Positions 50,313-56,680 of a DNA stretch of 64,000 nucleotides are shown one piece after another (position 1 is the first letter of the stretch; each line of letters starts with the position of its first letter). Position numbers and translations under genes: made by a program. The stretch spans positions 54,684,001 through 54,748,000 of the forward strand of contig OX597821.1 in assembly GCA_951406725.2 (NCBI GenBank), in the 5' to 3' direction. Source of the stretch: Octopus vulgaris (Eukaryota). The notes below the pieces were generated by a model. That model was not told where the DNA came from. It did not search any database and saw only the letters and a program-made list of their open reading frames with translations.

Positions 50313-50382
<70 letters not shown>

Positions 50383-50697
50383 TTTAAAAAATATATATAT
50401 ATAAATATATACATATACACAGTAATTTTCATTTTCGCCGAAACGCACATGGTGCAAAAATAACTGAATCAAGTTATCTCCTGCAAGAAAGAAAAAAGAA
50501 GCATCTCTCCTGAAAAAAATCCCGTAAACCAAAAAAAAATAATCCAGACCACATTGTTGGATTAAGTATCAATTTCATCTATTTCATATTTTATTTATTA
50601 TTCTATTTTATCTTTCACTTAGGCCCACATCTTAGTTAAAGTTGCGATCGTCATTTTGTTTGTTTACATTTTCAATATCTGTTCTCGATATAATAAT

Positions 50698-52177
50698 TTT
50701 CCAGATACTCTATCTTCTAATTAGCCTTAAGATTAAATTAAATAACGTTTAATATTGATACCGTCAAATTAGCCTTAGGATTAAATTTAATAACGTTTAA
50801 TATTGTTTAATATTGTTAATAATTATTGTTAACTAGCCTTAGGATTAAATTAAATAACGTTTAATATTGTTTTAATATTGTTAATAATTATTGTTAATTA
50901 GCCTTAAGATTAAATTAAATAACGTTTAATATTGTTTAATATTGTTAATAATTATTGTTAATTAGCCTTAGGATTAAATTAAATAACGTTTAATATTTTT
51001 AATATTGTTAATAATTATTGTTAATTAGCCTTAAGATTAAATTAAATAACATTTAATATTGTTTTAATATTGTTAATAATTTTTCAGATACTCTATCTTC
51101 TAATTAGCCTTAAGATTAAATTAAATAACGTTTAATATTAATAACGTCTAATTAGCCTTAGGATTAAATTAAATAACGTTTAATATTGTTTAATATTGTT
51201 AATAATTATTGTTAATTAGCCTTAGGATTAAATTAAATAACGTTTAATATTGTTTAATATTGTTAATAATTACTGTTAATTAGCCTTAAGATTAAATTAA
51301 ATAACGTTTAATATTGTTTAATATTGTTAATAATTATTGTTAATTAGCCTTAGGATTAAATTAAATAACGTTTAATATTGTTTAATATTGTTAATAATTA
51401 TTGTTAATTAGCCTTAAGATTAAATTAAATAACGTTTAATATTGTTTTAATATTGTTAATAATTCTTCAGATACTCTATCTTCTAATTAGCCTTAAGATT
51501 AAATTAAATAACGTTTAATATTACCCACACTCTAATATAATATTAACATTGCTAATATATTTTCAGATACTCTATCTCCTAATTAGCCTTAAGATTAAAT
51601 AACGTTTTTACCCACACTCTAATATAATATTAATATTGCTAATATATTTTCAGATACTCTATCTTCTAATTAGCCTTAAGATTAAATTAAATAACGTTTA
51701 ATATTAATAACGTCTAATTAGCCTTAAGATTAAATTAAATAACGGTTAATATTGCTTAATATTGTATATATAATTTTTCAGATACTCTGTCTTCTAATTA
51801 GCCTTAAGATTAAATTAAATAACGTTTAATATTACCCACACTCTAATATAATATTAATATTGCTAATATATTTTCAGATACTCTATCTCCAAATTAGCCT
51901 TAAGATTAAATAACGTTTTTTTTACCCACACTCTAATATAATATTAATATTGCTAATATATTTTCAGATACTCTATCTCCTAATTAGCCTTAAGATTAAA
52001 CAACGTTTTTATCCACACTCTAATATAATATTAATATTGCTAATACATTTTCAGATACTCTATCCCCTAATTAGCCTTAAGATTAAATAACGTTTTTACC
52101 CAAATAACGTTTTTACACAAACTTTAATATTGTTAATATTTCTTTTTCAAGTACTCTATCTTCTAATTAGCCTTAAT
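50698..52177 (+). repeat. Modular higher-order AT-rich tandem array, 21 copies of core (AAT)TAGCCTTA(A/G)GATTAAA
   Basis: Core TAGCCTTA counted by eye at 50722, 50770, 50834, 50899, 50963, 51026, 51105, 51153, 51217, 51281, 51345, 51409, 51488, 51584, 51671, 51719, 51799, 51895, 51985, 52072 and 52168. Confidence 0.95.
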
Positions 52178-52237
52178 ATCTTCCTGTCTTCTCTCGAACA
52201 TAATTAGATAGATAAACGGATAGACGGATTATCCAGC

Positions 52238-55200
52238 ATGTCCAGAGCATGGAGACCTGACGAGCTGGATTTATTCGTACAAGCATGGGAGTGCGCCGGC
52301 GGAGATAGCCCTAGCGAGGTGATTGCGGCTGCGCTGAAGAGCAGAGGCTATACAAGAGGACAGCGGCTCAGATGGAGCGAAAGAGACGGGAATTCGTGCG
52401 CTCATATGCGCTTGTACGGTCGCACATCGGCGCACTTGATGCCATCTTTGAGAACGAGCGGAGCAAAGATGGCAAGAATGGAGACGATGAAAGAAGTCAC
52501 CCCCACCTGGTGGACGCCCGGGAGGAGGTTTTGAATGAGAAACCTGCCCGGGAAGTGAACCCAGGTGCAAGTTCTCCAACCGGCAGCAAGGGCCATGGAG
52601 ACGGAGAACCCGGTGAAGAGGTAGAGGGAGGAAGAAGAACTAAAAGAAGGACTGGAAGTGCTAAAGGAAAAGAAAAAGCTCAAGCAGGACCAAAGAGTGA
52701 AACAACCAGGAATAGAAGTGGAACCGCAAAGGATGGAACCAAACAGCGCACACGGGTGTGTATGTTCTACCTGAGAGGTTCCTGCTGGCATGGAAAGGAA
52801 GGTGCAGGCTGCTTCTTTGCACATCGGGGACCCTGCCACAGAGACACGAGGCAGATGGACAAACCATCAACACAAAGAAAAGGGATGGACCACGCACCAC
52901 CTTCCCCAAAGCGGAGGTACGCAGATGTTGTGCGCGCCACAAACAGCCAACATGATGTTGTCGAAAGAGCAGCTGCTGAGCAACAATCTTTTTGTGCATG
53001 GCACAAAGATTGTACAGCAGCTGACCTGGCTTCATCAAACCCAAGCCCGCAGGTGGGACTACCCACTATATACCAGACCACCACAGCAAACAGACACAGG
53101 ATGGACACCGCCGGCAACAACGTACACCTCACCTCGATACTCCTACTGAACATCAGAGGACTGCAAACACTCAGTAACAGGACAAAGATCCCGTTCCTGA
53201 GAGACTTTGTTGCATGCAATCAAACCTTATGCATAGCACTTACAGAAACGCACCTGAAACCGGACATAGCAGATGCGGAGTTACACATACCACAGTATGC
53301 TGTACTACGGACCGACAGGAAAGAAAGGAGTCATGGAGGTGTTGCTATGTACATCCGTGAGGACCTCACACCCCAGGTCCTCTTGTCATACTCAAACTCG
53401 GTGTGTGACACACTAATTGTACATATTAGGCAACTTGATGTAGTTGTGTGTGCTACATATCGCCCTCCAGATGCCCCAAGCCATGTGGGCAAGTTTGAAG
53501 ACTGCCTTATAAAAATAGAAGAAATTCTAACCACATTAGAACAACACATAGGTGTGCTTCTTATGGGAGACTTCAATCTGCCCAATGTCAGATGGCCCGA
53601 GGGCCTTTCTCTCCCAGGAATGACAAGATGTGAACGAGGACAGGCGAGGTCCCTCCTGAACCTCATCAACACCCTGTACATGGAGCAGGTAATACTCCAA
53701 CCAACCAGGGCAGGTAACACACTGGATCTCTGCTTCACAAATGACATGGATCTCATCCATAATGTGAAAGTGACACCGACACTACTCTCGGATCACAACA
53801 TGATAGAGCTGACCATGTACGGGCCAAAAGAGAGCACGGACATGCAGCCTACAAGAAACCCTCAAAATCTTTCCAGCTTGAACTACCATAAGGCAAACTG
53901 GAAACAAATTGAGAAAGAGATCCTCAAACAAAACTGGCCTAAATGTCTCTCCTCGCCAGACATCGACGTGAAACTTCAACAATTCATGTCTGTAATGCAA
54001 GCCATATGCTACAAATGTGTCCCAGAGAGAAAGGCCACTGTACACAAGAACAAAATCCCCAGAGAGAGGAAAATTTTAATAAGACGGCGTACGAAATTTT
54101 CAAATCGCCTAAACAAACAGATTGAAAGCAGTGAAAAGTCCCGCCTAAAAATAAAACTGTTGGAAATCGAAAAATGTCTGCAACTCTCCCATGAAAAAGA
54201 AAGAGCAGACAAAGAAGCCTGGGCTATAGAAAACATAAAATCTAACCCCAGAGCTTTCTACAGGTATGCCAAAGAAACAGCTACAGTGCACTGTAGAATA
54301 GGGCCACTCCTCGAAAAGGATGGCACACTTACAGGAAAACCAATGAGGGTAAGTGAAATACTGAATGAGCAATTCAAGAGTGTTTTCACTCCACCCCTTG
54401 GGCATCTCCAAATCACCAATCCAACTGACTTTTTTACCACTGCAGATATAAAATCAGAGGCGGCGAAGATAGATTACATCGATATAAAGGAAGACGATGT
54501 AACCAAGGCTATAGATGAAATGAAAACAGACTCAGCTACTGGCCCCGATGGATTCCCGGCAATCCTCCTAAAAGCATGTAAGAGAGTCCTAGCAAGACCA
54601 CTGCAGTTCCTCTTTCAGAGCTTCCTTGCAGCTGGCAAACTTCCAGGAAAACTGAAGGAAGGTAAAATATGCCCCATTCATAAAGGAGGTAGCAGAGCGG
54701 AAGCCAAGAACTATAGACCTATCTCTCTGACCTCACACATCAGCAAGGTCATGGAACGAATAGTCAGAAGGAAGCTGATCACCTTCCTTGAAGAGAATGA
54801 CTTGCTGCCCGACACCCAACATGGTTTCCGACCAGGGAGAAGCTGTTTAACTCAGCTCCTACAACACTATGACTGGGTGCTGAAACGGCTGCTCAACCAC
54901 TCAAATGTGGAAGTGATATATCTCGACTTTGCAAAGGCCTTTGATAAAGTCGATCATGGAATGATATGTCACAAACTGTGTGATCTCAACATAGTTGGAA
55001 AACTGGGAGAATGGCTTCATGACTTTCTGAAGGATAGAAGTCAGGTGGTAGTAGCCAATGGGGCCACCTCCATTAACACACAAATAGTGAGCGGTGTTCC
55101 GCAGGGCACTGTTCTGGGACCACTACTGTTCATAATGGCCCTCTCAAACATGCCCTCAGCCACGCAGAGAGCCACGATCACAAGTTATGCAGATAATACA

Positions 55201-56097
55201 AAAGTTTCACAGGCAATACAGAACCCTGAGGACACTAAACACCTGCAATGTGAGCTGGACGAAATATACAAGTGGGCTGAAAAGAATAGCATGCAGTTCA
55301 ATGCTGGAAAGTTTCAAGCTTTATACTATCAGCATGCAAAACTGAATGCAATACCCAATGAATACACTGGACCCGGAGGGATTGCAATCCCAGAGGCACA
55401 ATCAGTGCATGACCTGGGTATTCACATGAGTGATGACGCGACCTTTCATGTACATGTTGCTAAACTGACAATGAAATGTAGACGGCTGGCTGGATGGATT
55501 CTTAGAACCTTTAGAACAAGAGAACAAGAAACCATGATGGTCCTCTGGAAGACACTTGTCCTAAGCCACTTTGACTATTGCTCTCAGCTATGGTCACCAT
55601 CCAGTGTCAAGTTGATCACAGAACTTGAGGCGATCCAACGAAACTACACAAAGAAGATAGCCTCTATGCAGAATGTAAGCTACTGGGAAAGACTCAAGAG
55701 ATTAAAATTATATTCCCTGGAGCGTCGGCGGGAAAGATATGCCATAATATACATCTGGAAGATCCTGGAGGGAAGTGTCCTGAACTTTGGCATCGAGAGT
55801 TACGCAAATGCCAGAACTGGGCGCCACTGCGTGGTGCCTAGGACTCCAAACCTGCCATCAAGATGTAGGACAAGATTCTGTGATAGCCTGGGCTTCTGAG
55901 GCCCACAGCTCTTCAATATCCTCCCGAAGAACCTGAGAGACCTGCATGGGGTGGATACAGATGTCTTTAAAATGAAGCTGGATCTCTTCCTGTCAGGTGT
56001 CCCAGATGAACCAACTTCACGGCAGGAGGGGCAGATGAGGGCAGCTGCATCGAACTCTCTCATGCACCAAATAGCAGTTGCTAGAAAGCCTCCATGA
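52238..56097 (+). pseudogene. LINE coding region: Myb/SANT-like domain, CCCH zinc finger, APE endonuclease and reverse transcriptase (1175-aa ORF 52372-55899 plus disrupted ends)
   Basis: CX7CX8CX3H at 52759-52824; EN motifs LLNIRGL, TETHL, MGDFN, NTLDL, SDHN; RT motifs QHGFR, YLDFAKAFDKV, SGVPQGTVLGP, YADN; frameshift at about 52350; TGA at 55897 with the frame continuing open to 56097. Confidence 0.9.
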
Positions 56098-56215
56098 AGT
56101 GAAACCAAGTAGCAACACCAAATGGCGGTGCCCCAGCATGGCCACAGCTCATAAGCTGAAACTAGAATCAATCAATCAATCAATCAATCAATCATGTATG
56201 CATGTATACACATGC

Positions 56216-56317
<102 letters not shown>

Positions 56318-56680
56318 ATATATTTGTGTGTGGAGTCAATTTCTTTTCTAAATGGAATGTATTGTAAATAATGTAGTATTAGAAACATGACTATAGCTTT
56401 GCTCAGATAGGCCTGATTAGGTGACTAACAACAAAAAAGCAACGTTAAAACAACAAGCAACAACAATAGCAATAACAAGAATAACAATGACAACAAATGT
56501 CACAACAACACTGATCTATGTCTAGATATAAATGTACTACTAATACAGAAGAGCAAGATGAAGTATTATGTTAAGAAATAAATATTTAAATTACACTTTG
56601 GTTTCTTCTCATTATCTCAATGTGCCAGCAGGTGCAGTCTTACTCATACACATCCATCCATCCATCCATACATACATACA

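Follow-up and report, generated by a model that had tools for sequence, protein, structure and literature searches.

An ORF1 with a Myb/SANT-like domain and a CCCH finger, and a predicted −1 frameshift site before ORF2, in APE-RT LINEs of the octopus

Among retrotransposons without long terminal repeats (non-LTR elements), those of the R2 group carry N-terminal zinc fingers and a Myb domain on the protein that bears the reverse transcriptase (RT); a Myb-like region has also been reported in ORF2 of TRAS/R1 elements. U_UUU_UUA is the frameshift site at the gag-pol junction of HIV-1, and frameshifting was suggested early on for long interspersed nuclear elements (LINEs) with overlapping open reading frames (ORFs), for example T1 and Q of Anopheles. 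Here, we analyze a LINE located in a stretch of 64,000 nucleotides of the Octopus vulgaris genome (assembly GCA_951406725.2, contig OX597821.1, positions 54,684,001 to 54,748,000, forward strand), hereafter called the window. Its family encodes an ORF1 with an N-terminal Myb/SANT-like domain and a CCCH zinc finger, and we propose as probable that its ORF2, which carries an apurinic/apyrimidinic-type endonuclease (APE) and the RT, is made at least partly by −1 frameshifting as an ORF1–ORF2 fusion.

For LINEs other than L1 and SART1, two papers (PMC3708506; PMC5009743), in the parts available, call it unclear how ORF2 is translated from the mRNA with its two ORFs, and HeT-A, with frameshifting within gag, is the only non-LTR case named in the available part of the latter. 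Microsatellites are targeted by the non-LTR elements Waldo, Mino, Kibi, Koshi and Dong (PMC3812793, seen in part), and 13 recently active CR1 families have been counted in an octopus, their ORF1 being undescribed in the part of the paper available (PMC13282606).

The element in the window and its ORF1

The window contains a single LINE, which extends from about 50380 to 56194 inside an AT microsatellite and is a broken copy of an APE-RT family that is young and of high copy number. The features, in window coordinates, are as follows (TRF, Tandem Repeats Finder; UTR, untranslated region).
50313..50380, no strand: (TA)n microsatellite on the 5′ side of the insertion site (TRF array 50313-50417)
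50380..52237, plus strand: LINE 5′ UTR; the same sequence lies upstream of ORF1 in other copies and reaches further 5′
50691..52121, plus strand: AT-rich tandem array in the 5′ UTR (TRF), upstream of ORF1 in other copies too
52238..53149, plus strand: ORF1, 303 aa in intact copies, here broken by +2, −1 and −1 indels
52244..52467, plus strand: Myb/SANT-like domain (PF13837 match and predicted fold; helices 7-20, 25-35 and 42-76)
52349..52350, plus strand: TA insertion private to the window copy, missing in 29/29 other copies
52759..52824, plus strand: CCCH zinc finger, C-x7-C-x8-C-x3-H (zf-CCCH/Torus profiles, conservation in family D)
52989..52994, plus strand: predicted −1 frameshift site, U_UUU_UUG in 22/30 copies and one T short in 8/30 including the window
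52989..53149, plus strand: overlap between the C-terminal helix and tail of ORF1 and the −1 frame that runs on into ORF2
53101..56097, plus strand: ORF2, APE endonuclease and reverse transcriptase (Pfam; YADN at 55186-55197, TGA at 55897)
56166..56194, plus strand: (AATC)n 3′ tail
56195..56323, no strand: AT-rich/(TA)n microsatellite on the 3′ side of the insertion site (TRF array 56219-56323)

A search of the same genome for copies of the element gave 1663 candidates, 40 of which were scored and the best 30, 98-99% identical, were fetched. In the window, the ATG at 52238 opens a frame of 98 codons, while the long frame is open from 52315 and has its first ATG at 52372. The first-pass annotation had proposed that the two frames join when 2 bp are removed from TATAC at 52349-53, and this was borne out: the TA at 52349-50 is lacking in all 29 other copies and likewise in contigs from an independent run, no copy with the TA and two separate frames was found, and 27 of the 29 are open through the N-terminal domain without a stop. 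Of these 27, 20 have an ORF1 of 303 aa, six one of 261 aa and one a frame of 153 aa. When the natural 75-aa N-terminus was compared with the genome, 150 places were scored among 1292 candidates, with identities of 91-100%.

The long ORF is present in the window and is not the native state. The window copy is short of one T (~52989), which is present in 22/29 other copies, and of one A (~53005), which is present in 29/29; because of these two deletions its ORF1 is in frame with ORF2, and the single long ORF is therefore an artefact peculiar to the window copy. Typically, the 303-aa ORF1 is distinct from ORF2 (998 aa, ATG at 53101), which overlaps it in the −1 frame. Among 20 full-length copies, ORF1 has 303 aa in 17, 261 aa in two and is part of a fused frame in one; the 998-aa ORF2 is present in nine, and seven have the 303-aa and the 998-aa frames together. 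The Myb domain is part of an independent ORF1, and a predicted −1 frameshift is its only link to APE-RT. The first-pass annotation had missed this, as well as the exchange of the N-terminal module and the insertion into (TA)n (see below). Side by side with this, genomic copies with an in-frame ORF1–ORF2 fusion were seen (L092, L093, L094 and L130), in the first three via indels at the T-run that are either real variants or homopolymer errors.

ORF2 matches Exo_endo_phos_2 (E 7.6e-12) and RVT_1 (E 3.8e-28) in Pfam. The window copy is dead: it has three indels, which may be mutations or assembly errors, the RT motif YADN (YADD in another copy) and a premature TGA at 55897. It also lacks about 150 bp of the 5′ end of the family. 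The array in its 5′ UTR consists of units of about 64 and 87-90 bp with higher-order periods of 311 and 383 (TRF), and the number of units differs between copies.

ORF1s that combine Myb and CCCH parts occur in four LINE families of the octopus genome, which we term A to D, the window family being A. The native protein consists of the Myb/SANT-like domain, one CCCH finger and a C-terminal helix. We consider it almost certain that the N-terminal domain has a Myb fold. PF13837 (Myb_DNA-bind_4) is the best Pfam match to the N-terminus in all four families; in natural family A copies it covers residues 3-61 (E 2.5e-4, 21.8 bits), and it gives 16-17 bits in family D, 25.1 in B and 23.9 in young copies of C. 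The window's two broken frames alone have no Myb match in Pfam. The Myb/SANT assignment of the first-pass annotation holds, with the profile check turning out mixed: older copies of the sister family C lie above the PF13837 cut-off (34.9-36.1 bits, E 9e-9 to 2e-8 by hmmscan) and family A lies below it. A language-model search, which we treat as a lead only, placed Myb/SANT-clan clusters at 0.79-0.83, behind three unnamed clusters. Over eight rows of families A, B and C, W5, E9, W17, R40, Q44, K48, H62, L66 and I69 are invariant, the first six of these remain unchanged across families that are only 23-30% identical, and in another alignment W5 is invariant and W17 nearly so. Between A and D (two D copies), the proportion of nonsynonymous differences (pN) is 0.33 in the domain and 0.51-0.52 in the linker, the synonymous proportion (pS) in the domain being saturated at 0.78-0.82. 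AlphaFold, run on a 16-row alignment of LINE copies only, predicts a three-helix helix-turn-helix bundle (helices 7-20, 25-35 and 42-76) with a mean local confidence score (pLDDT) of 89.1. The best structural matches are MYB RAD (Z 7.8; root-mean-square deviation, rmsd, 2.4 over 58 residues), TEAD4 (7.5), the SANT domain of DNAJC2 (6.9) and GT-1 (6.7; rmsd 6.0 over 72).

Several observations count against this assignment. Family A stays below the Pfam cut-off (21.8 and 20.8 compared with 27 bits for the 75-aa domain), the Z values are middling, the best one (7.8) being within the range that the tool calls a common arrangement, and the Foldseek matches agree but all have E values above 0.1 and are non-significant. 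Searches of Protein Data Bank (PDB) sequences with the single domain and with the alignment returned nothing significant, GT-1 appearing at E 0.4 behind chance matches. The Myb/SANT fold has three regularly spaced core tryptophans, and the third of these positions is occupied by R, K, L, I or T in the LINE domain. Taken as a whole, we regard the fold as well supported.

Helix 3 is the recognition helix in DNA-binding Myb and trihelix domains, and by analogy with these models the LINE domain would bind DNA, perhaps in the sequence-specific way put forward in the first-pass annotation. Alternatively, it could be a degenerate SANT-like or mere three-helix module that binds protein or histones and stands in for a lost PHD finger. 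In line with this, it sits where relatives have a PHD-like module (see below), SANT domains are among its top fold matches and its charge is only mildly positive (13 K+R vs 10 D+E). We judge a protein-binding role to be unlikely, as the invariant R40, Q44 and K48 cluster at the start of helix 3 and most of the top fold matches come from structures with bound DNA or from domains whose name says that they bind it. A further thought is that the Myb domain acts as an autoregulator by binding a motif that recurs in the 5′ UTR of its own element, which in family A holds the 1.4-kb tandem array; this appears very improbable, given that the domain is kept in families B and C, which lack such an array in the stretches seen, and in D, whose 5′ region is mostly CT-rich. 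A single D copy (L273) does have a similar AT-rich array.

The first-pass annotation had also placed a CCCH finger behind the domain. It is present with the spacing C-x7-C-x8-C-x3-H, and its profile matches are below the cut-off (zf-CCCH E 0.005-0.2, Torus E 3e-5). The finger is 64-68% identical to that of the diverged family D, compared with 24-32% for the linkers, and the C-terminal part of ORF1 is conserved in family D as well. By its similarity to other fingers of this type, it may bind RNA. RRM, CCHC knuckle, transposase-22, PHD and esterase domains were absent from the Pfam matches of three natural ORF1s at E values up to 10.

The junction of ORF1 and ORF2

The combination of Myb and CCCH is a genuine ORF1 type at the level of the lineage; more surprising is the predicted frameshift signal 650 bp further downstream. 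As detailed in the next section, the CCCH-type elements form a single RT clade, in which the start of the ORF2 frame lies within ORF1, shifted by −1, and every ORF1 examined ends in a helix starting x-F-L. When the motif was picked by eye, 11 loci showed xxT TTT TTA (nine), TCT TTT TTG (the window family) or TCC TTT TTA (a decayed copy), and a twelfth locus lacked the x-F-L motif. A second test avoided choosing the motif by eye and used only the point at which the ORF2 frame opens: an in-phase U6N heptamer follows at codon 1-4 in 10/13 clade loci, the other three being damaged copies. With one copy taken from each of eight lineages, exactly one in-phase heptamer was found in each overlap, and the 3112 ORF1 codons further upstream contained none; it reads U_UUU_UUA in seven lineages and U_UUU_UUG in the window family. 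The chance of this codon string, calculated from codon usage, is 0.003-0.02 per lineage. From the heptamer to the endonuclease the −1 frame runs through 524 codons in seven lineages without a stop, the upstream rate being 302 in 3597 (0.084 per codon). In five of the eight lineages (B, L158, L160, L161 and L162) the first methionine lies behind the first endonuclease strand, and therefore an AUG start could not yield the whole enzyme. F-L opens the last helix in 106 of the 120 homologues listed, and a residue that lacks a T-ending codon precedes it in only two of these 106, compared with 21% nearby and 82 of 548 other F-L pairs. On these sequence grounds, programmed −1 frameshifting in the clade is very probable.

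For the window family itself, the case is less firm. Its U-run reads U_UUU_UUG in 22/30 copies and is one T short in 8/30; in family D, the heptamer ends in UUA in 15, in UUG in five and otherwise in one of the 21 copies scored out of 25. The following points weigh against frameshifting, above all in family A. Its third codon is UUG instead of UUA, and UUG at this position makes a weaker slippery site. The residues S, H, D, N and A found before F-L may equally well be helix-capping residues. When the 75 nt downstream of the site were folded, the z-scores of 10 loci of the clade lay at −1.83 to +1.14 and that of family A at 0.02; hairpins are found downstream in some loci (L158, L162), with inconsistent z-scores and with pseudoknots outside the folding model. 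An in-frame AUG is located about 12 codons before the endonuclease in family A, and C, D and L159 also have one there. Finally, the family A copies were picked as best matches and not drawn at random.

Some of the same facts speak for a conventional start, in which the Myb-CCCH ORF1 works only as a free protein, ORF2 has a start of its own, the AUG at 53101, which ribosomes reach through reinitiation or leaky scanning in the way of L1 or SART1, and the U-run is left over from a frameshift site used by an ancestor. The AUG in question recurs in family D and in P0005, the UUG codon and the downstream z-score of 0.02 fit such a course, and unconventional initiation and stop-start coupling are described routes in the available parts of PMC5009743 and PMC3708506. 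On the other hand, the U6 run is kept in 22/30 copies of family A, in 20 of the 21 scored copies of D and also in related elements from other runs, the −1 frame is open all the way from the heptamer to the AUG in A, D and P0005, and five clade lineages are without such an AUG. We consider an own-AUG start rather unlikely, and frameshifting is probably still used by family A, though this is held with less assurance than frameshifting in the clade.

Slippage of the RNA polymerase at the U-run, by which a U would be gained or lost and some transcripts would encode an in-frame fusion, is a far weaker contender. The U-run is indeed a genomic indel hotspot, as seen from the T missing in 8/30 family A copies and from the in-frame fused copies in families A, B and C (L130, L092, L093, L094). 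However, homopolymer indels also arise from reverse transcription, replication or long-read assembly, and slippage needs no codon phase, yet the X_XXY_YYZ phase is kept in 8/8 lineages with only six U. We consider it highly improbable.

Frameshifting may, as far as motifs can tell, extend beyond the CCCH clade: in 12 loci without CCCH there are seven canonical heptamers in 585 overlap codons vs five in 3724 upstream codons. We noted that among esterase-type CR1 loci (L182:1615-1630, L186:1447-1459, L203, L208, L187) four ORF1s end L-N-stop or F-L-V-stop with an in-phase U_UUA_AAC or U_UUU_UUA, that three of these four are followed by a −1 frame some 1000 codons long, and that L186 has a hairpin just downstream of the heptamer (z −2.23). 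Four CR1 loci of the PHD/coiled-coil type (L179, L183, L190, L191) have a −1 frame overlap with A_AAA_AAC near its start.

Distribution, probable module exchange and insertion into (TA)n

A genome search with PF13837 resulted in 150 scored places among 448 candidates, 147 of them above the cut-off. Of the 30 best places, 25 belong to LINE family C and five are without a LINE ORF2 nearby, with family B ranking further down; when 20 longer stretches around such places were fetched, 19 proved to have an APE-RT match, which in intact copies is about 37% identical to that of the window. Family D is older, about 50% identical to the Myb domain of the window. When the domain was compared by HMMER with 1.84 billion representative proteins, 21 matches were obtained at E up to 0.001; eight were looked up, and the three named ones are all from octopus. 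A weak match is to a repeat protein of 1114 aa whose PF13837 score is genuine. A homologue search with the whole ORF1 found a single protein among 1215 candidates, and relatives of ORF2 are abundant (5316 of 7988 candidates). Among 80 metagenome loci the nearest have CCCH arrays like family C, and those farther away have ORF1s with PHD and coiled-coil parts or with an esterase.

A quick RT tree and a careful one of 33 rows were calculated, both with midpoint root and made up of sequences other than named references. All CCCH-type elements fall into one clade with 100% support, beside unnamed RTs whose ORF1s are of the PHD or esterase type; PHD-like, coiled-coil and RRM-like, as used to label the trees, were assigned from motif patterns together with a Pfam scan covering 14 proteins. 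A search with the CCCH cluster as query yielded 241 proteins, and among the 120 listed the named ones are from the ctenophore Mnemiopsis. None of these 120 ORF1 homologues has the Myb profile, 103 have a helical plus PHD-like module instead, and 17 have neither, most of the latter being short or cut at the N-terminus. This helical plus PHD-like module is an undescribed ORF1 type common in marine animals. It was seen at the N-terminus in L162:298-750 and the homologues P0150-P0269 (predicted pLDDT 94.8), is repeated in tandem in L161 and is itself without a Pfam match in L162. A diverged Myb domain was considered for the helical module of the non-octopus relatives and rejected (hhalign probability 0.1). 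No Myb entry is among its 50 best fold matches, an absence that does not exclude likeness; those among them with a common theme are Rho-N, LEM and SAP domains (Z 3.3-5.1, a weak likeness), and the fold differs from Myb.

The CCCH part is old and clade-wide, and on the octopus side the Myb domain has probably taken the place of the helical plus PHD-like module. Families A and B/C are found on opposite sides of the clade (support 97/90 and 97/92), and a tree holding A and B/C together was rejected by the approximately unbiased (AU) test (p 0.009). The simplest reading is that a single gain in cephalopods put the Myb domain where the PHD-like module had been, and that co-resident lineages then exchanged parts of ORF1; two separate gains may also have taken place. 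Some caution is due here: the 120 homologues and the eight lineages are related, their counts not being independent events, and the grouping used in the AU test, which includes P0006-P0008 without an ORF1 assignment, was chosen with the tree already in view. The comparison with host-type domains yielded no donor of the Myb domain. Two neighbouring Myb domains of host type (L063 and L064, G000:C26) match the LINE profile weakly (E 3-4e-5) and are possible relatives of the donor. The first helix of these Myb/SANT domains resembles that of family B. No Harbinger-type transposase was recognized by eye among ORFs of at least 100 aa within about 4-6 kb of them.

Family A has a strong, not absolute, bias for (TA)n. 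At 3′ junctions with an (AATC)n tail, (TA)≥3 is present within 12 nt in 35/44, nine failing this test (five further junctions with other tails were excluded); the background is 525/8263 window positions and 109/2700 flank positions (4-6%). (TA)≥3 lies directly upstream of the 5′ end in 15 of 18 scorable near-full-length copies (2/20 were unscorable). Some copies (L120, L129, L130) have matching variants of the repeat on their two sides, which points to existing (TA)n arrays being split by insertion. In families B and C, at least 8 of the 10 3′ ends listed run into (TA)n. Copies of A, B and C often adjoin within 10 kb with (TA)n between them (L091, L093, L103, L106, L107, L111, L114), as is expected from repeated insertion into the same arrays. 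Older relatives (L242, L245, L246, L251, L268) share the 3′ end and carry other tails, A-rich or of the AAAATC type, followed by TA-rich repeats. Ten metagenome contigs of non-Myb relatives end without (TA)n, an observation of little weight, as they are single contigs and many of them stop inside the element. That the Myb domain chooses (TA)n is a tentative idea that we rather doubt. The endonuclease is credited as the determinant of the insertion site in the available part of PMC3812793, and an engineered fusion of the TRF1 Myb domain to the TRAS1 APE cut telomeric repeats specifically (PMC2868851, seen in part), so a Myb-APE design can work.

A proposed mechanism and comparison with known systems

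Starting from the reading frames and their conservation, the heptamer with its phase and the (TA)n bias, all of which were observed directly, we infer the following course of events. Most ribosomes would yield free ORF1 protein, which would coat the element RNA via the CCCH finger and the basic linker and oligomerize via its last helix. A minority would slip at U_UUU_UU(A/G) and produce Myb-CCCH-APE-RT, in which the nicking and copying enzyme itself would carry the DNA-contacting module, an arrangement close to that of R2. The Myb domain, which likely replaced an older helix-extension-helix plus PHD-like chromatin module in cephalopods and then passed between two co-resident RT lineages, would most likely tether the particle to DNA or chromatin. 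A bolder proposal would be that a widespread animal LINE clade, and with it probably many further invertebrate CR1s, makes its RT in the retroviral way as a −1 frameshift fusion, and that the gain of Myb in the octopus converges on the R2 design and steers the endonuclease to (TA)n; as a package, we regard this as speculative and doubtful. A canonical slippery site is conserved from a clade containing ctenophore elements to octopus; if it is used as proposed, the domains of ORF1 would be carried along with the RT, and PHD, esterase and Myb modules would have to be read in a different light. The Myb-CCCH ORF1 is also a clear case of module exchange, and young, numerous families piling into (TA)n bear on how the octopus repeat landscape forms.

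The first-pass annotation had called the ORF1 architecture unusual, rightly so, as it is missing from the available parts of the ORF1 surveys. The words Myb, SANT and CCCH were not found in the accessible text of the CR1/L2 survey (PMC4120745) or of an L1 survey (PMC5203782), nor were Myb and CCCH in that of PMC13343379. A group named “CR1 subgroup 2, type V” in PMC4120745 was considered as the octopus clade and set aside, since in the part available it seems to comprise mosquito elements. In a literature search that had Repbase Reports, Dfam and most subscription journals outside its reach, we found no report of a CR1-group LINE with a Myb or CCCH ORF1, of a LINE whose ORF1–ORF2 junction is slippery or of a LINE that targets (TA)n. 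The idea of frameshifting in LINEs may predate this work; a described conserved site was not found.

With APE, RT and no RNase H, ORF2 fits the CR1 group. The LINEs of the CR1/L2 lineage share with the octopus elements an APE-RT ORF2, a short tandem-repeat tail and a modular ORF1 with an exchangeable N-terminus, as far as the available text of PMC4120745 goes, and the nearest outside RTs in our tree carry PHD plus coiled-coil or esterase ORF1s. Unlike ORF1 types I-V as defined in the part of that survey available, the octopus ORF1 has no RRM, CCHC, transposase-22 or esterase. The domain shares with the Myb_DNA-bind_4/trihelix/MSANTD group (PF13837; GT-1, PDB 2jmw and 2ebi) the pattern W..E...L...W ... 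R[ST]..Q...K and three helices with a long third one, and differs from trihelix domains in being below the cut-off in family A, in its short loop between helices 1 and 2 and in its position in a LINE ORF1. In its insertion into a simple repeat the octopus LINE resembles Waldo, Mino, Kibi, Koshi and Dong; unlike it, no (TA)n-targeting LINE and no member of the CR1 group is in the list given in the available part of PMC3812793. The junction resembles retroviral gag-pol in having the same heptamer in the same phase and, as predicted, a nucleic-acid-binding protein fused to the polymerase, and differs in that it lies between ORF1 and ORF2 of a LINE and that no conserved 3′ structure was found. If the frameshift is used, the element is R2-like, with Myb and zinc finger on the chain of RT and endonuclease and insertion into a specific repeat. 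In contrast to R2, it has two overlapping ORFs instead of one and an APE at the N-terminus of ORF2 instead of a C-terminal restriction-like endonuclease, and its Myb domain resides in ORF1, N-terminal to the CCCH finger, joined to the enzyme by predicted recoding.

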